Shown here in pieces: positions 3,501 to 63,746 of a DNA stretch of 64,000 nt (its first letter is position 1; each line of letters opens with the position of its first letter). Source of the DNA: Escherichia phage vB_EcoM_Goslar; sequence record NC_048170.1, one strand, 5' to 3'. The notes under the pieces were generated by a model that had not been told where the DNA came from, made no database searches, and worked only from the letters and a program-made list of their open reading frames with translations. The translations under genes and the position numbers were made by a program.

Positions 3501-3506
3501 TCGTCG

Positions 3507-3533
3507 AGCCTGTCCTTCGGGGCAGGCTTTTTA
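3507..3533 (+). terminator. rho-independent terminator (GC hairpin with TTCG loop, then TTTTT)
   Basis: agcctgtcc-ttcg-gggcaggct followed by tttttat immediately after the stop of the 2679..3500 gene. Confidence 0.6.
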
Positions 3534-4148: not shown

Positions 4149-4180
4149 CATCCTCCCAACCCGTAAGGGAAGGGAGGATG
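4149..4180 (-). terminator. conserved intergenic stem-loop terminator
   Basis: catcctccc-aa-ccc-gtaa-ggg-aa-gggaggatg between convergent genes; minus-sense followed by UGGUUUUUAUGC. Confidence 0.55.
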
Positions 4181-11185: not shown

Positions 11186-11220
11186 CCTCCTTCCCTAGCC
11201 GTCAAGGCCGGGGAAGGAGG
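11186..11220. terminator. conserved intergenic stem-loop (variant loop), between convergent genes
   Basis: cctccttccc-tagccgtcaaggccg-gggaaggagg; 10-bp outer stem, U-rich flanks on both strands. Confidence 0.5.
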
Positions 11221-14971: not shown

Positions 14972-15052
14972 TTAAAAAGTTCCTCTGTTTCACGTTAATT
15001 AAACAACGTATTGATTTCTATTTGACAGAATACGAACAGTGTACGTATCTAT

Positions 15053-15076
15053 CATGAAGGTAATGTAGTCGTGAAA
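15053..15076 (-). promoter_or_regulatory. conserved promoter-like motif, copy A
   Basis: Minus-sense TTCACGACTACATTACCTTCATGA; one of four near-identical copies, about 80 nt upstream of the 14971 start. Confidence 0.45.
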
Positions 15077-15777: not shown

Positions 15778-15810
15778 CCTTCCTCCAACCCAACAGGGAA
15801 GGAGGAAGGG
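15778..15810 (-). terminator. conserved intergenic stem-loop terminator
   Basis: ccttcctcc-aa-ccc-aaca-ggg-aa-ggaggaagg directly after the stop of 15826..16719; minus-sense hairpin followed by UUUAUGUUUG. Confidence 0.6.
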
Positions 15811-16861: not shown

Positions 16862-17404
16862 ATGGCCTTAGACTTTAACAAAGCAGCAAAATCCCTTCTG
16901 CTTGATCTTATCAACACCAAAGCAACCCGTTCACTGGCCGAACAAGAACTGCAGTTCGGTACTCCGGCGGCATCTTTCGAACATTCTAAGAACACCGTTA
17001 TTCAGCTGGACGCTGCGCCTGAAGCAGAAAACCTGCAGGGTACTCAGCAGTTCTACTACGATCGTCTGGCTCTGTCTGACGTTTTCGCTGATGTAACCGG
17101 CGATGTTACTTTCGAACTGCCGCACGGTACCGACAGCATTCAGGCTTCTGAACTGGTGAACAAACTGGTCACCAAATTCGGCCTGGCTTCACTGAACGGT
17201 GAAATCAAAGAAGAAACCTTCCAGCTGTCTGGAGGTACTGTTGGTCAGGTAACTCTGAATGCGATCGAGAACGGCCTGGTATATACCGGCACTCTGCAGG
17301 TTGCTCTGACCTATGCAGCAGCACCGAAAGACCAACTGGCAACCGTTCTGGCGGATAACGTAGCTGATGGCTTCGTGAAACCGACCGTTAGCGTTGTTGG
17401 CTAA
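16862..17404 (+). CDS. short paralog of family A, predicted highly expressed
   Basis: QFYYDRLALSDVF and LVYTGTLQVAL motifs; strongly optimised codons (CTG, CGT, ACC, GGT, GAA); SD GAGGA 9 nt upstream. Confidence 0.6.
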   Translation: MALDFNKAAKSLLLDLINTKATRSLAEQELQFGTPAASFEHSKNTVIQLDAAPEAENLQGTQQFYYDRLALSDVFADVTGDVTFELPHGTDSIQASELVNKLVTKFGLASLNGEIKEETFQLSGGTVGQVTLNAIENGLVYTGTLQVALTYAAAPKDQLATVLADNVADGFVKPTVSVVG

Positions 17405-17603
17405 TAAGCACATAGAGCAATAGTATGGGTTTTGTACAGCTCGGCTATTGCTCTTCTACAATTTGGTTGTAACAATCTGCGTGGTTGCACGCTTATCTTT
17501 CTCATTGAGCGCTTCGTATGAAGCGTGGTGTTGAAAGGGTTGTGGATCTCCTCAAGCGGCCAGGGACCCAGACCAACCTGAATAAACACAAACAAACCTT
17601 AAG

Positions 17604-17637
17604 CCCCTCCTCAGCCCTTATCGGGTTGGGGAGGGGT
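17604..17637 (+). terminator. conserved stem-loop terminator (plus-sense copy)
   Basis: cccctcc-tcagccc-ttat-cgggttg-gggagggg followed by cttatacgtctttatg; downstream of the 16862..17404 gene. Confidence 0.55.
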
Positions 17638-27745: not shown

Positions 27746-27777
27746 CCCTCCTCCAACCCGTAAGGGAAGGAGGAGGG
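27746..27777 (-). terminator. conserved intergenic stem-loop terminator
   Basis: ccctcctcc-aa-ccc-gtaa-ggg-aa-ggaggaggg; minus-sense hairpin followed by UUAUGUUUGG; sits between convergent genes. Confidence 0.6.
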
Positions 27778-33904: not shown

Positions 33905-36814
33905 ATGAACGATATAAATAAAGGGCGCGTCGCCCTCGAACGTCAAATGAGCAATAATGACGTTGCGAAGGCACTCATGAACAAATTTGTCGCTCCTGCT
34001 CCGCAGTCACGTCTTTATAACACACGTGATGCGGAAGGAGCGAACGGTCGTTTCGGGTTAGTTGTTCCCGACCAAATGACGATGAACACGGTTACGCGTG
34101 CGACCGCGACAAACATCGAGGATAATAAAAACATCCTCGAGTTGTTCCCTGAACTTAAACGCGTGATGCAGATCTATGTTGCCGCGTTGACGAACCCTAA
34201 CGATCTTAAGACGGTCGAGATGTTTATCGACAGCGAAGATTTCCCCGGCAGAGTCGCAGAAATCGTTCAGCCGATGATCGATACCATCGACACGCATTTT
34301 AAGAATATCTATAAAATAAAGACGCTTATCCCTCGTATCATCGAAGACGTCTTCTTTATCAAGGGCAGTTATAACTTCGTTGTTCTGCCAGAAAGCACGC
34401 TCGACCGCGCCATTAATGGTAACGGTCAACTGAAACTTGAAGAATACGGTTTTAAAGACAACCATTTTGCAAGCTGGGGACTTTTAGGTAACGACAGTCG
34501 CAAACGCCACGAAAATCAATTACCTGCGACGGTTTCGATGGAAGATTATTTCTCAGGCGTTAATGAAACCATACCGTACGATCCTGTTGTTCGCATAGAC
34601 AGCATTAAATTTACCAATACCCTGCTTCGTGATAAGGACGGTAAATTCATTGAAGCGAAGATCGATATTCCGGATATGGTTACGGTTGTCGATAACCCGG
34701 ATATCCTCCGCATGCCTATTCTGCATCAACGTCGAGCAGCGACAGCAGTGCAGCGTGCGTTACGTGCAAACACGTTAGGAGGTAGTGGTTTGGTAACGCT
34801 GTCAGGTGATCCGACCCTAACCGCTAACCGACGTGAGCTGACGCAAGAGCAGGTTAACGAGATCTGGAATAAACTCAACATCCAGCGTCACACCAAGGTA
34901 TCTCCCGTTTACGCGTTGGCAACCCCAGATACACTCGATCGTCAAAGCGTCGGTCATCCTGGTGTGATGCACGTACCACCTGAGGCATTAGAACCTGTAC
35001 ATGCGCCGGGTGATCCGGAGAACCATATCGGATATTTGGTTCAGTTGGATGAGTTTGGTTATCCGGTGCGTTTGGTTGAAGATGCTGCGTATTACAAGCA
35101 GTTGGAAGGTCGGTTGTCGAAGATCACTGCAGATATCGCGGGCACGTCAAGCAACGGCATGGCGAGCGAGATGATTGGTGCAGCCAAGAACATGATCCAA
35201 GGTACGTCATGTAATCAGGTAGACATGTCGGCCTTCGTATCGTCGTACGAATCGCTGATGCAACGTTACATTGTCGAACGTATCGTTAACGGTTATCTTG
35301 GCAGTGCGGTGGAGATCGGTGCGACATCATCGTTTTATCTGTCGATGCTTGCCCGTAGCCTCGCTCACAAGCAGACCCGTGTTTTGTTTATTCCTCGAGA
35401 GATGGTGACTTACATCGCCTATGAATACAACAAATACGGTATCGGTCGTTCGCTGCTTGAAAGTACGAAGATGATCTCGTCGCAACGAGCCATGCTCATG
35501 GTTCAAGAACTGATGGCAAAAATCAAAAGTTCGTTGAACTATACGACGCTAAGCGTAATGCTTGAAGACACCGACAGAAACCCGGTCGATACCGTCGAAC
35601 AAGCACTGCATAGTTTCGCTCGTGTCTACCAGTCTGGTTTCCCGTTGGGTGAAACTAACCCGATGGATATCATCAACGCGTATGAACGAAGCTCGATTCG
35701 ATTGAAGGTTGAGGGGAATAACCCACGCTTCCCGAAATTGAATACAGACGTCAGTGTTGAGCAGCGTAACTATCAGTCTCCTGATAATGAGCTGATGGAT
35801 CGTTACCGTCGTGACCATTTCATGGGCTTGGGTGTGTCTCCGGAGATTATCGATACTTCCTACCAATCTGAATTCGCAGCTTCTGTGATTACAGCTAACG
35901 CGATGCAAGAGAAACAGTTCACGGTTTGTCGTGAGGTGATCACGAATGGATTATCGGACCACATCAAGAAATATACGGCATACAGTCCCGTGTTGTTGAC
36001 GTCGTTACGAAACACGGTTCGTGCGAACATGTCTAAGCTTTCCCAGGCACAATTGAAGCAGCTTTTTGGTAGCGATTTCGAAAACGGTGTTATCCGTAAC
36101 GTTAACGCCTATCAGGAGATTGACGACCAATCAGCAACAATGGATCTGGATTACACTAAACCAGAAGTCCAGGAAGTTATTGCCGATGCTTATGTGTCCA
36201 TGTTCTTAAACAGCCTGCGTGTGCGTTTACCGGATAGCAATGCTCGTCGCCTTGAAGATCAGGTACGTGAATATAATCAGTACAAGGAAGCGATTACTGC
36301 GCAACTTGATGATTATTTAACGCCTGATTACGTCATGGGTCTGGGTGGGGTTGATGAAACAACGCTGCAGATGATCCGCGCATGCATTATTGGTACCGCG
36401 ATGCGTACGTGGGCAAAAGAGAACAACTTCAATCAGGAGCTGGCTGATCTCTTCAGTCTTGACGATAAGAAGAATGCCGTGCAAGATTGGAAACGTATGT
36501 CCATGGAACATATTGAAGTCATGGGTAAATGCATGGGTGATTTTGCATTGTATATTCAGAATCTGACGAAGAAGATTGAAGAGAAGATGGGAGCTCAAGC
36601 ACAGGACGGTAGCGTTTCATCTGATGGTTCGTGGTCATCCGATTCAAGTAGCGATACCGGTTCTTCTGATGACTTCGGTGGCGGTGACGATTTCGGAGAT
36701 ACCGATTTCGATACCGAAACGATGGAGGAAACCTCAACAGAAGAAACAACCACATCTGAGGAAACGACTACCGACACAACGTCAGAAGACGACACTTCAG
36801 GTGGCGTTGTCTAA
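33905..36814 (+). CDS. large hypothetical virion-type protein with acidic S/T/D/E-rich C-terminal tail (portal is one guess)
   Basis: 969-aa ORF, ATG with AAGGAG SD; C-terminal ~70 aa low-complexity acidic (SSDSSSDTGSSDDFGGGDDFGDTDFDTE...). Confidence 0.45.
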   Translation: MNDINKGRVALERQMSNNDVAKALMNKFVAPAPQSRLYNTRDAEGANGRFGLVVPDQMTMNTVTRATATNIEDNKNILELFPELKRVMQIYVAALTNPNDLKTVEMFIDSEDFPGRVAEIVQPMIDTIDTHFKNIYKIKTLIPRIIEDVFFIKGSYNFVVLPESTLDRAINGNGQLKLEEYGFKDNHFASWGLLGNDSRKRHENQLPATVSMEDYFSGVNETIPYDPVVRIDSIKFTNTLLRDKDGKFIEAKIDIPDMVTVVDNPDILRMPILHQRRAATAVQRALRANTLGGSGLVTLSGDPTLTANRRELTQEQVNEIWNKLNIQRHTKVSPVYALATPDTLDRQSVGHPGVMHVPPEALEPVHAPGDPENHIGYLVQLDEFGYPVRLVEDAAYYKQLEGRLSKITADIAGTSSNGMASEMIGAAKNMIQGTSCNQVDMSAFVSSYESLMQRYIVERIVNGYLGSAVEIGATSSFYLSMLARSLAHKQTRVLFIPREMVTYIAYEYNKYGIGRSLLESTKMISSQRAMLMVQELMAKIKSSLNYTTLSVMLEDTDRNPVDTVEQALHSFARVYQSGFPLGETNPMDIINAYERSSIRLKVEGNNPRFPKLNTDVSVEQRNYQSPDNELMDRYRRDHFMGLGVSPEIIDTSYQSEFAASVITANAMQEKQFTVCREVITNGLSDHIKKYTAYSPVLLTSLRNTVRANMSKLSQAQLKQLFGSDFENGVIRNVNAYQEIDDQSATMDLDYTKPEVQEVIADAYVSMFLNSLRVRLPDSNARRLEDQVREYNQYKEAITAQLDDYLTPDYVMGLGGVDETTLQMIRACIIGTAMRTWAKENNFNQELADLFSLDDKKNAVQDWKRMSMEHIEVMGKCMGDFALYIQNLTKKIEEKMGAQAQDGSVSSDGSWSSDSSSDTGSSDDFGGGDDFGDTDFDTETMEETSTEETTTSEETTTDTTSEDDTSGGVV

Positions 36815-36845: not shown

Positions 36846-36880
36846 CCTTCTCCCCAACCCGATGAGGGAAGGGGAGAAGG
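36846..36880 (-). terminator. conserved intergenic stem-loop terminator (variant loop GATGA)
   Basis: ccttctcccc-aa-ccc-gatga-ggg-aa-ggggagaagg between convergent genes; stem changes are compensatory. Confidence 0.55.
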
Positions 36881-41663: not shown

Positions 41664-43100
41664 TTACTTTTTCGATGACGCCTTCTCAAGAATCTTGAAA
41701 AAGGTCATACCTATACCGACAACAGCCGCGGTTATACTCGCAGCGGCTTTCCAAACATCGACGTTACGTTGACGTCGCGCTTCTTCCGCTTCACGTTGTC
41801 TTTTTGCCTCTTCATCACGTCGACGTATCTCAGCCGCAAACTCGTCATGCTTACGTTTGGCTTCTTCGTCTCGACGACGAAGTTCAGCGACGAATTCTTC
41901 ATGTTTGCGTTTAGCCTCGTCGTCACGACGTTTTAAATCAGCTTGATAATCTTCGTGTATTTGTCTACGTAGATCATCTTGACGTTTCATTTCGGCTTGG
42001 TGTTGTTCCATCCTACGTTTTTGTTCGTCTTTAAGCTGATCGAGTTCGGCTTTATGTTGTTCATCACGCAGCTTTGCGTCGGCGCGATGCGCCTCATGCA
42101 TCTGTGCGATAACTGCCTTGTGTTCATCCGCCATACGTCGCATTTCAGCCATCACCCCTTTAAGGGTTTCTTCTGATGCCTTACGTTCGTAGCTACGTTG
42201 GTCGAAATCATTTTTGTAGGCTTCTTTTTGGATGGGGTCGCGCCAATGCAATGCCGATTCACGCGTCGGAAAAACATTGTACTTCCACATCTCTTTTTCC
42301 AAATCTTCGACCGGTACGAAGACGGAGTCATTATTCCCGAAGGTAACCAACATACCTGGCGCGCCTGCTCCATTCGTTGGTTTTATTTCGAACGCTTTCC
42401 CCAACACGTTAACCCATAAGCTATACGGATTATGAAAGTCGGGCGGCGTCCAATGGATAGTGAGTTGCGTTCCGAGAATCCGGAAACCCTCTGTTTTTCC
42501 CGTCAAGCTCCGCGCGCACGTTGCGATGTAGGGGTGATCAATCCCTTTCGTAACGTGGTCTGCGCTTTTGTATTCTCCTTTAACTTTTACGATTGCCACG
42601 TTGATTTGCGCGACATAAGCGGGTTGATTAAAGTTCAACGTGTTGAGGTCAATTTGACATATTTCATCCAGCGTATCGTACCAGTCTTGCTGGTCTAATA
42701 GACGCGGCATTTTCTCTGTGTTAACAATACGACGGATATGCGGTTTCCTTATCGCGTAACCTGTGCCGTTTTTAACACGGAGTATATCCCGACGTCTACC
42801 CGCGTAGACGAAGTTTCTGAATGCACCATTCGCATTAGATACGTCATGGCTGTCAACTATTACAGGACTACGAAATTTTGAACGTCGTACGATCCTGAAT
42901 GTATTGCCGTCCTCAACCCTACCAGGAATGTACTGGAACATATTGTCGGAGGTGATAACCAACACGGTATGGCCAGATTCATTAATACATGCCCATCCTA
43001 ATTCCAGGTCATATAACGGTTCAGCATAACCGTCAATGCGATATGCGTGCGTACCATCCCACGGTTCGAACGCAGTATCACATATTGGCATGGAGGGCAT
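41664..43100 (-). CDS. hypothetical tail-anchored membrane protein with tandem coiled-coil repeats
   Basis: ATG at 43098-43100 (SD GGAGG); three tandem 18-aa repeats RRDEEAKRKH(E/D)EF(V/A)AE(L/I), then C-terminal TM helix ASITAAVVGIGMTFF. Confidence 0.5.
   Translation of the reverse strand: MPSMPICDTAFEPWDGTHAYRIDGYAEPLYDLELGWACINESGHTVLVITSDNMFQYIPGRVEDGNTFRIVRRSKFRSPVIVDSHDVSNANGAFRNFVYAGRRRDILRVKNGTGYAIRKPHIRRIVNTEKMPRLLDQQDWYDTLDEICQIDLNTLNFNQPAYVAQINVAIVKVKGEYKSADHVTKGIDHPYIATCARSLTGKTEGFRILGTQLTIHWTPPDFHNPYSLWVNVLGKAFEIKPTNGAGAPGMLVTFGNNDSVFVPVEDLEKEMWKYNVFPTRESALHWRDPIQKEAYKNDFDQRSYERKASEETLKGVMAEMRRMADEHKAVIAQMHEAHRADAKLRDEQHKAELDQLKDEQKRRMEQHQAEMKRQDDLRRQIHEDYQADLKRRDDEAKRKHEEFVAELRRRDEEAKRKHDEFAAEIRRRDEEAKRQREAEEARRQRNVDVWKAAASITAAVVGIGMTFFKILEKASSKK
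41765..41945 (-). repeat. tandem 54-nt in-frame repeats (3 units)
   Basis: Repeated ttcttcgtctcgacgacgaagttcagcgacgaattc-type units encoding the RRDEEAKRKHxEF repeats. Confidence 0.5.
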
Positions 43101-43250
43101 CGTCAACCTCCATCAGATTGAAAACTATCACGCATAATACATTTCCCTTTTTCTTGTTCTTATCAAGCCGACAGCCGACGGTTTCAGCATCGTTCCTAGC
43201 GCGAGAACGACCTTACGTGTTGTCTATGCCTTATTCATCGCAGGCGTCTG

Positions 43251-43274
43251 TCACCTAGGTAATGTAAGCGTCAA
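43251..43274 (-). promoter_or_regulatory. conserved promoter-like motif, copy C
   Basis: Minus-sense TTGACGCTTACATTACCTAGGTGA, about 35 nt downstream (minus sense) of hairpin 43310-43339 and ~150 nt upstream of the 43100 start. Confidence 0.45.
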
Positions 43275-43309
43275 ATTTTTTCTATTCGCAACGATAAACG
43301 GCATAGAAA

Positions 43310-43339
43310 CCTCCCCCAACCCTTACGGGCTGAGGGAGG
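43310..43339 (-). terminator. conserved intergenic stem-loop terminator (variant)
   Basis: cctccc-ccaa-ccc-ttac-ggg-ctga-gggagg; minus-sense followed by UUUCUAUGCCG; downstream of the candidate capsid gene. Confidence 0.5.
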
Positions 43340-43438
43340 CTGACTTATGTATCACGGTGCCGGATGAATGTCCGGTGCAATGAAACCATCTGCAACGTTG
43401 TCATCAAGAATATCATCCAACGAAGCAGCTACGGTAGT

Positions 43439-45661
43439 TCAGTTAGTCTGAACCGGCAGCTTGATGTTTTCAGTGTAGACCTTACGCAGGTTCACAACGT
43501 TAATCAGACCCAGCAGCGGGCAGTTGTTAACGAAGCGGCAGCGCGGCTGAACCATGGTTTCTTTAGAAACCTGACCGTTACGGGTAACCTGAGCAACAGA
43601 TACCAGTTCCGGTACATACAGGAACATACCGAAGGTCAGCGGATCCGGAGAACCCTGGATACCACGAGACAGGGTCACGAAGATCTTATCGCGCAGCATG
43701 ACGTTCGGGTTATCTACAACCACGAAGTTGAAGCTTACACCAACGGTACGGAAATCGCCATCGGTCTGCAGGAACTGCGGGATGTAGTTGTCAGTTGCTA
43801 CTACGCAACGCGGTTTCTCATCAGCGTTGGAAGACAGCAGCTGCAGAGCTGGCTGATAACCAGACTCGGAGTACATGCGGTATGCCATCTCACGAATCAC
43901 GTTCATGATCGCAGCAGACACTTCAGCACGACGTTCTGCAGTGGTGGTACCCTGAACAGATTTCTCCAGGTCCAGATTGATTTCTTCGAACCACGGACGG
44001 ATCAGGTAACGACCGAAACCTTCGATCTGGATGTCACCGAACTGACGGAAGCGAGAGGTCGCAACCGCTTTCAGTGCGTCTTTGTAGCTGAACAGTTTCT
44101 CAACCATCAGGTTGTCGAAACGTGCGTTAGCAGCTTGGATCAGAACGTCCAGGTCAGCAGCGTTTTCTTCCCAATCCAGCGGACGAGGAATGGAGAACGG
44201 AGCCAGCAGGCCGATTGCGTAACGTTCTTGCTTCATGTTGAAGTCAAGGTGCTTACCGCGCTCACGACGGTTGCTGTTGTTACGACGGATACGCAGTTCG
44301 TAACCAACCAGTTTGAAGCTCAGGTCTTCAGCCAGTTGTTTGAACTCTTCGCTCTTACGCGGTTGTTCGATGTTGTCCTGATCAACCAGGCGATACAGTT
44401 CAGCGTTAGCGCCGTTAACACGCAGACCCGCTTTCTCTACGTTGGAAGAACCGTAAACTTCGATCGCCAGCTGAGCAGCGGATTTCGCATCGATGATGTC
44501 CTGCAGCGCTTCGGCTTTCGCACCTTTAACGTCTTTGGTGTTCTCATCAACGAAGATGGAGTGGGTGTCGAACGCCAGGGTCATTTTGCGGAAGTCGCCT
44601 TCCAGGGATTTCTGGAAACCGTTGGTGATCAGACCAGATACGTCGAACGGTACGTAAGAGGTTTTGCTGTGCTTGGTAGATTTGATTTCCACCAGGATTT
44701 TGGTCAGCGTGATCTGAGCATCCAGCGCGTCGGTGTTGTCGCTGTAACCGTTAGCCAGAATGCTGTCGTCTTCAGCGATACCGATCATGTCGATCAGTTT
44801 ATCAACAGCCAGGTAAGACGTTTTATAAGTTACGCCTTTAATTTCGATGTCGCGCGGAGCAACGATAGCTTTGTCAACGAAGTACTGCGCGTTAGCATCG
44901 TCAGCACGATAGATCGGATGCAGATCGGTCACGTCGTTGGACAGAACGTCGTTATACATGAACGCATCCAGCAGCGGACGACGTACCCAATCAGCCGGAG
45001 TACCGTCAGCGTTACGACGCAGGTGGTTGAACACCAGCGGACGACGGAAAGATACGTCGTAACCGATCTGGTTCGGAGCCAGAACGATGGTGTTGTACAG
45101 TTCGTTACCCATGCGGCTCAGACGAGAAGCCTTCACGTTGAACACGACGGAGTACGGCATCATGTCACGCAGTTCTTTCTGGTCGTAGGACAGCTGAACC
45201 AGTTCTTCAGATTCGCAACCGCAGGAATCAGCAGCCATCATGACGAAGTTAGAGCTGTCAACTTCACGACCTGACGGAGTGGTGCTGATGTTCATGGAAC
45301 GTGCTTGTTTAGCATATTCTACCGGGTTGCCATGAGCCAGCATGATCAGTGCTGCTGCACGAGCCTGCTGTGCGTTCATGGTGAACAGCTGTTCTTCAAT
45401 ACGCTGCTTCTCTTCCGGAGTGGTGGTTTCGAAGCCCAGCAAGGTCAGAACCGGTTCTTCGGCTTTACGGATGTCGCTGCTGAAGCTCTTAACATCCATT
45501 TCGTTAACCAGTTTGTCCATGGATTTGAAATCAACCTTAGAAGCAGATTCCATAGACAGGAAGGTGTTCTCCAGACCTTTGTCTGCTGGTTTGCTACCAT
45601 TAGCGGTCAGGAACTGGCGAGTGGCCGCGACCTGTTGGCTAAGAAGGGTTTTATCATTCAT
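43439..45661 (-). CDS. putative major capsid protein (jumbo-phage-like size); tail sheath not excluded
   Basis: 740 aa; strongest optimal-codon bias in the window; SD AAGGA 9 nt upstream; own promoter-like and terminator elements; N-terminal ~160 aa contain S/A/G-x-E motifs (SME, GFE) of the kind cleaved by prohead proteases. Confidence 0.35.
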   Translation of the reverse strand: MNDKTLLSQQVAATRQFLTANGSKPADKGLENTFLSMESASKVDFKSMDKLVNEMDVKSFSSDIRKAEEPVLTLLGFETTTPEEKQRIEEQLFTMNAQQARAAALIMLAHGNPVEYAKQARSMNISTTPSGREVDSSNFVMMAADSCGCESEELVQLSYDQKELRDMMPYSVVFNVKASRLSRMGNELYNTIVLAPNQIGYDVSFRRPLVFNHLRRNADGTPADWVRRPLLDAFMYNDVLSNDVTDLHPIYRADDANAQYFVDKAIVAPRDIEIKGVTYKTSYLAVDKLIDMIGIAEDDSILANGYSDNTDALDAQITLTKILVEIKSTKHSKTSYVPFDVSGLITNGFQKSLEGDFRKMTLAFDTHSIFVDENTKDVKGAKAEALQDIIDAKSAAQLAIEVYGSSNVEKAGLRVNGANAELYRLVDQDNIEQPRKSEEFKQLAEDLSFKLVGYELRIRRNNSNRRERGKHLDFNMKQERYAIGLLAPFSIPRPLDWEENAADLDVLIQAANARFDNLMVEKLFSYKDALKAVATSRFRQFGDIQIEGFGRYLIRPWFEEINLDLEKSVQGTTTAERRAEVSAAIMNVIREMAYRMYSESGYQPALQLLSSNADEKPRCVVATDNYIPQFLQTDGDFRTVGVSFNFVVVDNPNVMLRDKIFVTLSRGIQGSPDPLTFGMFLYVPELVSVAQVTRNGQVSKETMVQPRCRFVNNCPLLGLINVVNLRKVYTENIKLPVQTN

Positions 45662-45810
45662 TGAAAGTATCCTTTACAGAATTAACTTATATAAGTCGGT
45701 CGATAGACCATAGCGTACACGCGTGCATGCGCCACTATAGTATCAGTAAACACTTACCGTTATTGAGGTCGTGATACAACACTAAAAATGCCGCATAACT
45801 TTTCCCTACG

Positions 45811-46431
45811 TCATAAACGACGCAGGCGATAATGGATGGAACGATTGGTGCAATATGAACGGAACAGCGGCAATTGCGCAACTTCCGCAAGACTCATATT
45901 AATTCGCAGGTGTTCAATAACGGCGCTGTAGTTATCAGCAATACGATCGCTCAATAACTCTTCTGCCAATAAAGGAAGACAATCGACAACAATCGCGATC
46001 ACATCCTCATTAACATAACGCACCCGAACACTCAACGGACGTTTGTCTGGGCTGTAAGTTGGATCCGCCAAACGACGTTCAATATCACGCGGATAGCTCG
46101 TCAGTAAATGGTAATAACCATTGTCATAACGATTGATGTACTCGCACAGCACATCAACATTCTTCTCTGGCGGCAAACCTGTTTCGTCATAGTGATACGC
46201 AAACATACCACCAAGCAGGTTGTTAAGATGAACTGCAGGGTTCGCTTGTTCGTGTTCTTTCGTGATGAAGAAAGGCACGTTTTGAGCCGCGAAATAAAAA
46301 CCTACATCATTGGGCGATAGTATGCCGAAAAGACTTTTAGGATCTAATAACACCTGTAAGTCATCACGCGCATTTCGAATGATCGCGTGTTCTACCCAAT
46401 TCGGAACGACGAGATATCGGAGTTCCTTCAT
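45811..46431 (-). CDS. hypothetical protein
   Basis: 206-aa ORF, SD AAGAGG. Confidence 0.45.
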   Translation of the reverse strand: MKELRYLVVPNWVEHAIIRNARDDLQVLLDPKSLFGILSPNDVGFYFAAQNVPFFITKEHEQANPAVHLNNLLGGMFAYHYDETGLPPEKNVDVLCEYINRYDNGYYHLLTSYPRDIERRLADPTYSPDKRPLSVRVRYVNEDVIAIVVDCLPLLAEELLSDRIADNYSAVIEHLRINMSLAEVAQLPLFRSYCTNRSIHYRLRRL

Positions 46432-46470
46432 TATGATTACCTCTTTGCAAGTATCGAAAGGATTGAGTCG

Positions 46471-48081
46471 ATGGACCCAAAACAGATAGCCATTAAGATT
46501 ATTACGTTACTGTTTCGTAATGCACAATTGAACCATCCCGATCCCAGTACGATCGAACATGTTAAATCCGTCTTAGATAAAGTCGAACCCCCGAAAAACC
46601 ATCTCGCTACAGACGTAGATAGAGAGGTTTTCAGCAACCTGATGAACACCATTCATTGGATGCTGGAACAACCGTTATCGGAACCTTTCGATAAACAACA
46701 GTTGTTACAAAGGATACGTTTAGATTGCCTTGAACAAAGCAATCTTTACGAGATTCTTGCCGACGGACTGTACGATATCGAAGACGACGCTCATATCAGT
46801 AAGGTCTGTTCGCTCTATTACAATGAATTACGTAATCTGATTACCCGTCGTCGTGTTTTCGAAACCTTTAAAAACACGTACATGGATATCAGTAACGGGC
46901 GACTTGGGGATAAAGAATTTTTCGATGCGATGGCGAATTTGAAATTATCGCTAGACAGTATCGAAATGGATACCGAAAATCCCGAAGAGATGTCGTGTAT
47001 GATTGACGGCTTTATCGCTGACAGCGAAGACGATATCGAGAAAGTTGAACGTATGTTCGTCAAAGCGATGGAACGTAACAGTCCTGAAGGTGGATTTGTA
47101 ACCGGCTGGCAAGGCTTTAATAAAATGTTGGGGTCGGTCGGTGTTTTACGTCGCGGTACCTTAGGACTGATTGGTGCAATGCAGCACCGAAACAAGTCAG
47201 GTGTGTTGTTAAAACTGTTCACGCATCTGGCACTGTACAATAAACCCCATTTCTTTTTTCCGGAGCGAGCAAAGAAAGCACTACTGATTCACTTGTCAAC
47301 AGAAAACGAAGTAGAAGAAAACACGCTTCAGATATACAAGAACATGCGAGAACAGGAAACAGGCGAATATGTCGATATTCGTAAGATTGACCCTCGCGAG
47401 GCATCACGTTATGTGTTGAAGGTGTTCAACGATGCGGGTTTCTCTGTTTGTATGCGTCGTGTTGATGGGATGAGTTATAAACAACTCGCTAATCTCATCG
47501 ACCATTTCGAACGCATGGGTTATGAAGTCATGGCGTTGTTCATTGACTATCTGAAAATGTTCTCATCGGAAGGGTTGGATAGAAATGGACCGACCGGCGC
47601 ATGGTTACAAGAACTCTTCAACAAAGTACGTAACCTCTGCAGCGTTAAACGTATTTTAGGTATGACCGTACACCAGCTGTCATCCGACGCGAAGATGCGC
47701 GCACGTGACGGTAACGATGAAGAGTTCGTTGACCAAGTCGCGGGTTTAAGTTACTGGGATGGTTGTAAAGGGATTGACCGTGAGATTGACCTCGAAGTGA
47801 TTGTTGATATCGTTAAGGAACCGGGTAAACGTCAAAGCTGGCAAGTCTTTGCGTTAGGGAAAGACCGTCAACCGGATAACGGTTCAACGAAACCTGAAGA
47901 CAAACATTTCGCGATGCCATTCCAAACCATCGGGATGCTTCCTGATGATTACGGTAAGAAAGCAGTATATTGCCGCAAGGTTGGCGGACAACCTGTCTCC
48001 GAGGGAGGTAAAGGTCCGTGGAACAAGTTCGATGAAAACGCAGCACCGAGTAATGAATTACAATTTGATTTAGAATTTTAA
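46471..48081 (+). CDS. DnaB-like helicase-family ATPase (divergent Walker A)
   Basis: Start moved to ATG 46471 (SD AAAGGA); motifs in DnaB order: LIGAMQHRNKSG (H1-like, atypical), FIDYLKMF (H2/Walker B), VHQLSSD (H3-like), VKEPGKRQS (H4-like); only plus-strand gene in this block. Confidence 0.4.
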   Translation: MDPKQIAIKIITLLFRNAQLNHPDPSTIEHVKSVLDKVEPPKNHLATDVDREVFSNLMNTIHWMLEQPLSEPFDKQQLLQRIRLDCLEQSNLYEILADGLYDIEDDAHISKVCSLYYNELRNLITRRRVFETFKNTYMDISNGRLGDKEFFDAMANLKLSLDSIEMDTENPEEMSCMIDGFIADSEDDIEKVERMFVKAMERNSPEGGFVTGWQGFNKMLGSVGVLRRGTLGLIGAMQHRNKSGVLLKLFTHLALYNKPHFFFPERAKKALLIHLSTENEVEENTLQIYKNMREQETGEYVDIRKIDPREASRYVLKVFNDAGFSVCMRRVDGMSYKQLANLIDHFERMGYEVMALFIDYLKMFSSEGLDRNGPTGAWLQELFNKVRNLCSVKRILGMTVHQLSSDAKMRARDGNDEEFVDQVAGLSYWDGCKGIDREIDLEVIVDIVKEPGKRQSWQVFALGKDRQPDNGSTKPEDKHFAMPFQTIGMLPDDYGKKAVYCRKVGGQPVSEGGKGPWNKFDENAAPSNELQFDLEF

Positions 48082-48106
48082 ACGCAAAAAAAAAGATTGT
48101 GCGGTT

Positions 48107-48138
48107 CCCTCCTCCAACCCGTAAGGGAAGGAGGAGGG
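48107..48138 (-). terminator. conserved intergenic stem-loop terminator
   Basis: ccctcctcc-aa-ccc-gtaa-ggg-aa-ggaggaggg; on the minus strand followed within ~10 nt by a U9 tract; between convergent genes. Confidence 0.6.
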
Positions 48139-48154
48139 GTTATGACCGCTTTGA

Positions 48155-49716: not shown

Positions 49717-49740
49717 TCATCTAGGTAATGTAGTCGCGAA
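49717..49740 (-). promoter_or_regulatory. conserved promoter-like motif, copy B
   Basis: Minus-sense TTCGCGACTACATTACCTAGATGA, about 35 nt downstream (minus sense) of hairpin 49776-49807. Confidence 0.45.
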
Positions 49741-49775: not shown

Positions 49776-49807
49776 CCCTCTCCCAACCCGTAAGGGAAGG
49801 GAGAGGG
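49776..49807 (-). terminator. conserved intergenic stem-loop terminator
   Basis: ccctctccc-aa-ccc-gtaa-ggg-aa-gggagaggg; compensatory stem changes relative to other copies; followed by CUUAUGCUG. Confidence 0.6.
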
Positions 49808-55028: not shown

Positions 55029-55079
55029 CGCAGATTCCTGTTTGAAAGATAAGATATCACATGATGGTCGACAGCATAA

Positions 55080-55101
55080 AGCCCACCCCGAAGGGCGGGC
55101 T
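55080..55101 (-). terminator. variant hairpin terminator with the same downstream UUAUG
   Basis: agccc-acccc-gaag-ggcgggct, minus-sense followed by UUUAUGCUG; directly after the stop of the 1125-aa gene. Confidence 0.5.
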
Positions 55102-55116
55102 GTTTATGCGTACGGA

Positions 55117-61008: not shown

Positions 61009-61041
61009 CCTTCCTCCAACCCGTAAGGGAAGGAGGAAGGG
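61009..61041 (-). terminator. conserved intergenic stem-loop terminator
   Basis: ccttcctcc-aa-ccc-gtaa-ggg-aa-ggaggaagg; minus-sense followed by UUUUAUGGCG. Confidence 0.6.
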
Positions 61042-63714: not shown

Positions 63715-63746
63715 CCCTCTCCCAACCCGTGAGGGAAGGGAGAGGG
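63715..63746 (-). terminator. conserved intergenic stem-loop terminator (GTGA loop)
   Basis: ccctctccc-aa-ccc-gtga-ggg-aa-gggagaggg; minus-sense followed by UUCUAUGCCG. Confidence 0.6.

Follow-up and report, generated by a model that had tools for sequence, protein, structure and literature searches.

The question raised by a 740-codon open reading frame (ORF) in the genome of Escherichia phage vB_EcoM_Goslar is what kind of protein it encodes, how this protein is processed and which signals start and end its transcript. The ORF was analysed within a stretch of 64,000 nucleotides of the sequence record NC_048170.1, referred to below as the window. An original prediction, made from the letters alone, had taken it for the gene of a phiKZ gp120-type major capsid protein (MCP), with a tail sheath as the main alternative. 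The ORF list with translations placed it exactly at the predicted coordinates, 43439..45661, on the minus strand, from an ATG start to a TGA stop. It was found that the ORF almost certainly encodes gp41, the MCP of Goslar, a nucleus-forming jumbo phage of the Chimalliviridae.

Identity and codon usage of the capsid gene

In an exact-sequence look-up, the ORF product was identical to Goslar_00041 (YP_009820726.1; UniProt A0A482GE55), annotated as 'major head protein'. The same residue was present at 740 of 740 positions, with no difference at the protein level. The product was also 100% identical over residues 1-740 to the 'Major capsid protein' chains of PDB 11BT (hexon), 11FG (penton), 11MK and 11ML, which are the Goslar capsid depositions of a recent preprint (10.64898/2026.04.21.720040). 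The Pfam family PF25620 PhiKZ_MCP ('Bacteriophage PhiKZ major capsid protein gp120') was matched with 725.7 bits (cut-off 27; E = 5e-218), from position 2 to 635 of the 635-position profile. This is a full-length match above the curated threshold, as is required of a member of the phiKZ-type MCP family. PHROG 3231 ('major head protein') was matched with E = 3.3e-164, and the distant PDB matches included 8BFL (E = 6e-62) and phiKZ gp120, 8Y6V (E = 1e-55), all PDB matches being capsid proteins. The capsid assignment of the original prediction was thereby upheld by PF25620, by PHROG 3231 and by identity to the solved Goslar chains, and nothing counts against the identity of the ORF as gp41. Three neighbouring ORFs were likewise exact matches to Goslar proteins, namely Goslar_00036, Goslar_00040 and A0A482GMW8, and the window is therefore Goslar DNA. 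A megablast search of the GenBank phage collection with the gene gave no match, and the best tblastn match in the same collection was approximately 33% identical.

A contractile tail sheath would fit the size range of the product, being an abundant structural protein of approximately 700 amino acids. This is the single point in its favour. The comparison with phiKZ-type capsid and tail-sheath profiles, which the prediction had proposed as a check, returned capsid families alone in Pfam, PHROG and PDB, and no sheath family was matched in the Pfam or PHROG scans. Moreover, the product is the same as the solved MCP chains, and Goslar builds its sheath from another protein, gp218. This excludes the main alternative. 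The probability left for a tail sheath is practically nil, and this candidate was rejected.

The protein is already known and experimentally characterised, its structure in the virion is solved, and the finding is not new. The cryo-electron microscopy (cryo-EM) study reported in 2026 (preprint 10.64898/2026.04.21.720040) describes 1,615 copies of gp41 in a T = 27 (h = 3, k = 3) head of approximately 147 nm across. The fold is that of HK97; besides an N-arm and a C-terminal arm it comprises P and A domains and an inserted I domain, and it superposes on phiKZ gp120 at 4.3 Å with 25.8% identity. The residues modelled numbered 576 in the penton and 583 in the hexon. A further PDB entry, 36za, holds 1,365 chains of 583 amino acids that are 100% identical to gp41 residues 158-740. 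It is not among the depositions of the preprint, its depositors took S158 as the start of the chain, and a second, independent structure of the Goslar capsid thus appears to exist. As the building block of a structurally characterised T = 27 head, gp41 brings no change for the field. The case illustrates that the MCP gene of a jumbo phage can be recognised by reading the raw sequence, the clues being size, codon bias and triplets that resemble protease sites.

Phage phiKZ gp120 (8Y6V), the founding member of PF25620, is likewise an HK97-type protein with an inserted I domain, forming a T = 27 head of 1,615 copies, and in both phages the N-terminal 160 residues or so are not seen in the mature shell. 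Its length, 747 versus 740 amino acids, agrees with the predicted size match to the large phiKZ-like capsid proteins. In contrast, the two proteins share only about 26% identity, and the gp41 codons are tuned to E. coli, not to Pseudomonas. The major head protein of the Klebsiella jumbo phage vB_KpM_FBKp24 (8BFL/8BFP) belongs to the same family and aligns with gp41 residues 188-737 (E = 6e-62). It is a distant relative, the phage having been identified by tblastn, and the deposited chain comprises the 570-residue mature part only.

Codon statistics were determined for the 53 ORFs of the window that do not overlap and encode 100 amino acids or more, using a list of E. coli optimal codons drawn up for this analysis. 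Within this set, no gene had a higher optimal-codon fraction than gp41 (0.846) or a smaller effective number of codons (Nc = 30.2), in good agreement with the claim that its bias is the most extreme in the window. The preferences named in that claim are real: CTG serves for 64 of 68 Leu, CGT for 35 of 46 Arg, TTC for all 35 Phe, GGT for 27 of 34 Gly and ACC for 27 of 38 Thr residues. Codons 1-74 were slightly less optimised (0.70) than the rest of the gene (0.81-0.92). Compared with two relatives from IMG/VR (L001 and L002), whose MCPs are 99% identical, the codon changes were 31:4 and 48:11 synonymous to nonsynonymous, and this substitution pattern shows that the sense frame is under strong purifying selection.

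Selection for very high translation late in infection would account for this extreme preference for the optimal codons of E. coli. The Shine-Dalgarno (SD) sequence weighs against a simple view of that high expression. It had been described as strong, but its duplex energy with the anti-SD was only average, -5.4 kcal/mol, which is rank 29 of 53 (window median approximately -5.5). High expression is therefore not explained by the strength of ribosome binding. The AAGGA sequence itself is conserved in two more distant relatives, L003 and L005, which are introduced below.

The second most codon-biased ORF of the window was found at 16862..17404 (+). It encodes 180 amino acids with a DUF7941 assignment, and shows an optimal-codon fraction of 0.82 and an Nc of 34.5. 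Counting genes from gp36 makes it the probable gp23 of Goslar; its exact-sequence look-up gave no match, and the annotated start may differ. The hairpin that follows it, at 17603-17637, is nearly identical to the one behind the MCP gene (CCTCCTCAGCCC..GGGTTGGGGAGG). For gp23, the estimate is approximately 2,140 copies in each virion (preprint 10.64898/2026.04.21.720040). Judging from these two genes, codon optimisation appears to track virion abundance, with the MCP first and the probable gp23 second.

The strand opposite to gp41 carries a frame that stays open over 636 amino acids and begins with ATG, as would be expected of a genuine overlapping gene. It had been called an artefact of the codon bias, and the codon counts account for it mechanically. 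The frame, 43364..45274 (+), lies in exact codon register with gp41, where TTA, CTA and TCA are the only sense codons that give antisense stops. The gp41 gene contains 0 TTA, 0 CTA and 1 TCA; the frame is open because the first two are lacking, and the single TCA at codon 130 supplies the antisense stop. Register with a gene that avoids these codons through optimal-codon use thus fully explains the openness, and the substitutions relative to L001 and L002 obey the sense frame. A gene in this frame is very improbable and was rejected.

The N-terminal region and the proposed maturation cut

Residues 1-157 of gp41 are without cryo-EM density, and only residues 158-740 are visible (preprint 10.64898/2026.04.21.720040). 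Together with the 1,615 copies per head, this agrees with the predicted abundant, N-terminally truncated virion protein. The missing density suggests an N-terminal processing like that of phiKZ. According to PMC11297242 (citing Thomas et al. 2012), phiKZ gp120 is cleaved at Glu163↓Asn164, after G161-L162-E163, and the cuts reported for phiKZ head proteins follow the Glu of S/A/G-x-E.

Such triplets had been pointed out in the first 160 or so residues of gp41. Seven were found in residues 1-157 and seven in residues 158-740 (4.5 versus 1.2 per 100 amino acids, an approximately 3.7-fold difference). The HMMER alignment placed phiKZ N164 opposite Goslar S158, the first ordered residue. The alignment of the cut region took in three proteins obtained by homologue search: P0016 (71% identical to gp41; Logan ERR3928893, the 71-kb contig L003), P0017 (68%; Logan SRR22177369, from which the sequences L004 and L005 were taken) and P0019 (31%). 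Two overlapping candidate sites lie nearest to S158, in G-C-E-S-E-E (codons 148-153). The G-x-E150 triplet is kept in the three Goslar-clade proteins, as GCE, GVE and GSE, and S151-E-E153 is lost in P0016, which has N-E-G.

Based on these observations, gp41 would be made as a precursor of 740 amino acids whose N-terminal 150-157 residues or so would act during prohead assembly. The phage prohead protease would then remove them, as in phiKZ gp120. The cut would most likely fall after E150 (in the clade-conserved G-C-E) or after E153 (S-E-E), leaving 4-7 disordered residues before S158; this is a specific prediction, to be set against a cut at L157↓S158. Neither HK97 gp5 nor T4 gp23 gave a detectable sequence match to gp41 here. 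In both of these systems the N-terminal assembly domain of the precursor is removed by a prohead protease before capsid expansion, which is the general mechanism proposed for gp41, but the proteins and capsids are much smaller and the proteases have another specificity.

Three points weigh against the cleavage step. The enrichment of triplets is real but weak (composition-shuffle P = 0.04), the position homologous to the phiKZ cut motif reads V155-Q156-L157↓S158 and holds no Glu, and no biochemical mapping of gp41 cleavage was found in the literature. An uncleaved MCP, with residues 1-157 still attached and disordered inside the head, would be compatible with V-Q-L in place of the aligned phiKZ cleavage motif and with the fact that direct evidence of processing in Goslar is limited to the missing density. 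It is nevertheless improbable. The homologous phiKZ propeptide is cut at the aligned position (PMC11297242), the region is enriched in protease-type triplets with G148-x-E150 conserved, and the chain of 36za is given as 158-740 only. In addition, 1,615 times 157 disordered residues would amount to a very large unmodelled mass competing with the packaged DNA.

The other alternative accepts the processing and moves the cut exactly to L157↓S158, by a clade prohead protease of changed specificity. In its favour, S158 is both the first ordered residue of the hexon and the chain start in 36za. Both phiKZ N164 and P0019, which has S-L-E↓A exactly at the phiKZ-like cut position, align precisely with this junction, and (V/A)-(Q/M)-L↓S-(Y/F)-D-Q is shared by all three proteins of the Goslar clade. 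On the other hand, phiKZ-type proteases act after Glu in S/A/G-x-E (PMC11297242, citing Thomas 2012), the conserved G-x-E ends only 7 residues upstream, and cryo-EM models commonly lack a few disordered residues at the N-terminus. A cut at this junction is rather unlikely but a serious alternative, and cleavage after E150 or E153 is preferred. Compared with phiKZ, where G-L-E163↓N164 is cut, the aligned Goslar position is V-Q-L157↓S158 and the nearest S/A/G-x-E triplets end at E150 and E153. The maturation cut in the Goslar clade may have moved from the ancestral position, or it may use a P1 residue other than Glu (V-Q-L↓S).

Putative transcription signals around the gene

The 149-nucleotide region between gp42 and gp41 was compared among relatives. 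L001 and L002 carry 0-1 substitutions in 45662-45810 and, being 99% relatives, are too close to inform on non-coding conservation. Blocks of this region, namely GATACTATAGTG (45744-45733), CACGCGTGTAC and ACTTATATAAGTTAA (45696-45682), are conserved in relatives whose MCPs are only 68-71% identical. Neither ACTTATATAAGTTAA nor GATACTATAGTG recurs elsewhere in the window, which argues for elements specific to the MCP gene and not for a general promoter family. TATG cores are present at 45797-45794 and 45712-45709, that is, 2 copies in 149 nucleotides where about 0.6 would be expected for a random tetramer; a four-nucleotide core alone is weak evidence. In phiKZ, (-3)TATG(+1) is the core of the late promoters used by the non-virion RNA polymerase (nvRNAP) (PMC7618050), and the MCP gene of phiKZ and of 201phi2-1 is preceded by three consecutive promoters (PMC11512511). 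In the light of the TATG cores and these three promoters, it is plausible that an MCP promoter lies in 45662-45810, with a function that we infer from the features named. Transcription of the MCP gene would start in this conserved region from TATG-type nvRNAP late promoters, read through from gp42, or do both.

Scans for sigma-70 promoters and canonical terminators gave nothing relevant near gp41, the results being below shuffle expectation, and host-type signals were rejected on this ground as an explanation of its expression. No sigma-70-type promoter is expected for a phage with its own polymerases. The lack of one upstream counts against the proposed promoter to the extent that its assignment is carried by the four-nucleotide core and conservation only. 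The promoter-like element that the original prediction had given to the gene could not be retained, since the motifs cited lie 3' of the gene and cannot drive the MCP. The downstream hairpin and motif reported with it were both confirmed, the hairpin as a member of a family of about 13 and the motifs as lying behind it.

The hairpin at 43308-43341 is stable and G+C-rich, as an intrinsic terminator requires (-32 kcal/mol, z = -5.1). L003 and L005 have a hairpin at the same place with other, covarying stem sequences and with the loops GAAA and TTCG. The MCP transcript would end at this conserved hairpin, approximately 97 nucleotides past the stop codon. Two results speak against a terminator of the canonical kind: no clean T-run directly follows the stem, the tail being TCTATGCCGTTT, and a hairpin-plus-T-run scan of 42900-46500 called no terminator. 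The hairpin was not called because of this tail. Data on transcript ends were found in the literature neither for Goslar nor, as maps, for Goslar-like phages.

Behind the hairpin, TATGCCG is invariant in three lineages (Goslar, L003 and L005), and 32-40 nucleotides past it all three share a conserved ACATTACCTA(G/A)(G/T)TGA block. Since these downstream motifs lie 3' of the MCP gene, they are part of the gp40 unit and not of that of the MCP; TATGCCGT belongs either to this next transcription unit or to the terminator signal. The motif ACATTACCTAGGTGA recurs at 49731-49717, 15066-15052 and 2566-2552, each time on the minus strand, in an intergenic region and upstream of minus-strand genes. Written as (t)TTc.cgaCTACATTACCTAg.TGA, it is found at 43251-43265, 49717-49731, 15052-15066 and 2552-2566, in two cases approximately 40 nucleotides after a hairpin with TATGC.

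About 13 hairpins of the window, the one behind the MCP gene included, resemble one another and make up a family. They are GC-rich, with a tetraloop, typically CCYTCCTCC..CCC-GTAA/TTAC-GGG..GGAGGRGG, and nearly all gene ends carry one. The whole element is dyad-symmetric, (G)CATA, hairpin, TATG(C), often with TATGC(C/T)GT. Read along the gene that terminates, TATG follows the stem at 12 of 13 sites, 1-12 nucleotides away, and it lies within 6 nucleotides of the stem everywhere but at 17603-17637. TATGC occurs within 20 nucleotides of 10 hairpin sides, compared with about 1 expected. Hairpin and TATG are likewise coupled in L003 and L005. The pair is also present between convergent genes, at 4149-4180, 27746-27777 and 36846-36880, where a promoter would produce antisense RNA only, and TATG is therefore possibly part of the termination signal. 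Going by its arrangement in the sequence, TATG may be a piece of the signal at which nvRNAP terminates; alternatively, terminator and late promoter may be obligatorily coupled in one module. The papers on phiKZ and 201phi2-1 transcription, among them PMC7618050 and PMC11512511, report late promoters, a motif for termination and several promoters of the MCP gene, and a hairpin-TATG coupling is not described in them. Taken jointly, the hairpin-TATG element as a termination signal or coupled module and the shifted or non-Glu MCP cut are put forward as a somewhat doubtful proposal. The conserved element could help to annotate transcription units in Goslar-like phages.

At the start of the window, around 35-95, a long poly-A run lies behind a partial hairpin plus TATGCCGT element. 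The strong hairpin at 61-95 is followed by a long T-run on the minus strand; no other hairpin with a classical T-tract was seen.

Neighbouring genes and related phages

The coordinates of the features are collected in Table 1.

Table 1. Features of the gp41 locus and hairpins of the same family, in window coordinates unless a relative is named
Feature	Coordinates	Strand	Basis
Coding sequence, gp41 MCP precursor, 740 amino acids + TGA	43439..45661	-	ORF list, exact database identity, PF25620
N-terminal region absent from mature capsid density, codons 1-157 (putative propeptide / scaffold-like domain)	45191..45661	-	cryo-EM density, 36za chain, triplets
G-C-E-S-E-E, codons 148-153, two overlapping candidate prohead-protease sites nearest S158	45203..45220	-	motif positions, conservation
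HK97-fold body, codons 158-740 (N-arm, P, A, I domains, C-terminal arm)	43442..45190	-	hexon model of 583 amino acids; alignment to phiKZ gp120 and FBKp24 MCP
SD sequence AAGGA, 8 nucleotides before ATG, average strength	45670..45674	-	sequence, duplex energy
gp42-gp41 intergenic region, 149 nucleotides, likely site of putative MCP promoter(s)	45662..45810	-	conservation, TATG cores
Terminator-like hairpin, 15-bp stem, GTAA loop, about 97 nucleotides past stop	43308..43341	-	fold, conservation, hairpin family
TATGCCGT, 2 nucleotides past hairpin, matching the TATG core of chimallivirus nvRNAP late promoters	43298..43305	-	phiKZ consensus (PMC7618050); invariant TATGCCG
ACATTACCTAGGTGA, second promoter-like motif, 150 nucleotides upstream of gp40 start	43251..43265	-	recurrence, conservation in L003 and L005
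Stop-free antisense frame, 636 amino acids, with ATG start, artefact	43364..45274	+	codon register with gp41
gp42, 206 amino acids, vertex-binding-complex protein	45811..46431	-	exact match A0A482GMW8_BPGOS
Goslar_00040, 478 amino acids, ATG at 43100 preceded by GGAGG	41664..43100	-	exact match
Goslar_00036	33905..36814	+	exact protein match
Window hairpins	3506-3529, 4149-4180, 11186-11220, 15778-15809, 17603-17637, 27746-27777, 36846-36880		
Window hairpins, continued	43308-43341, 48106-48139, 49776-49807, 55074-55109, 61009-61040, 63715-63746		
Hairpins of relative L003	4882-4918, 12260-12293, 18872-18906		
Hairpins of relative L005	964-1001, 7247-7285		

The 206-residue protein encoded upstream of the MCP was identified as gp42 because it adjoins Goslar_00041. 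It is a protein of the vertex-binding complex, homologous to phiKZ gp119 (preprint 10.64898/2026.04.21.720040), and the pair gp42-gp41 is therefore syntenic with phiKZ gp119-gp120, where the gp120 gene likewise lies directly downstream of gp119. The same order, with a gp119-type protein immediately upstream of the MCP, was found in L003 and L005.

On the other side, the exact match of Goslar_00040 holds only with the ATG at 43100, not with the TTG start at 43106 of the mechanical ORF list. A mini-ORF of 10 codons (ATG at 43134, MRDSFQSDGG; 43100-43136, -) overlaps the SD sequence of Goslar_00040. Beyond gp42, a divergent DnaB-like ATPase (divDNAB; PF20307, E = 1.6e-120) was found at 46387-48081 (+), and its first GTG start overlaps the start of gp42 by 45 nucleotides. 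The product counts 564 amino acids here versus 536-537 in relatives, which makes a start further downstream probable.

The uncultivated Goslar-clade phages resemble Goslar in the length of the MCP, in the gene order divDNAB, gp42-like, MCP, gp40-like, in the upstream blocks and in the downstream arrangement of hairpin, TATGCCG and ACATTACCTA. They differ from it by 29-32% amino-acid divergence of the MCP and by the sequence of the hairpin stems, and in L003 an additional gene of 179 amino acids separates the MCP from the gp40 homologue. The MCPs of both uncultivated lineages are far closer to gp41 than that of any GenBank phage searched (at most about 33%).

An exact-protein contig look-up with gp41 gave no match. 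Megablast against complete RefSeq E. coli genomes and PLSDB plasmids gave no match, and there is no evidence in complete E. coli genomes or PLSDB for Goslar-like replicons as plasmids or prophages. Copies of gp41, gp42, Goslar_00040 and Goslar_00036 that are identical or more than 90% identical were present on hundreds of contigs. The exact gp42 (206 amino acids) occurred on 664 contigs, many of them of 235-259 kb, in draft assemblies labelled Salmonella enterica, E. coli, Shigella flexneri and Enterobacter hormaechei. Goslar-like phages seem to accompany enterobacterial isolates commonly, either as a carrier state or as contamination.

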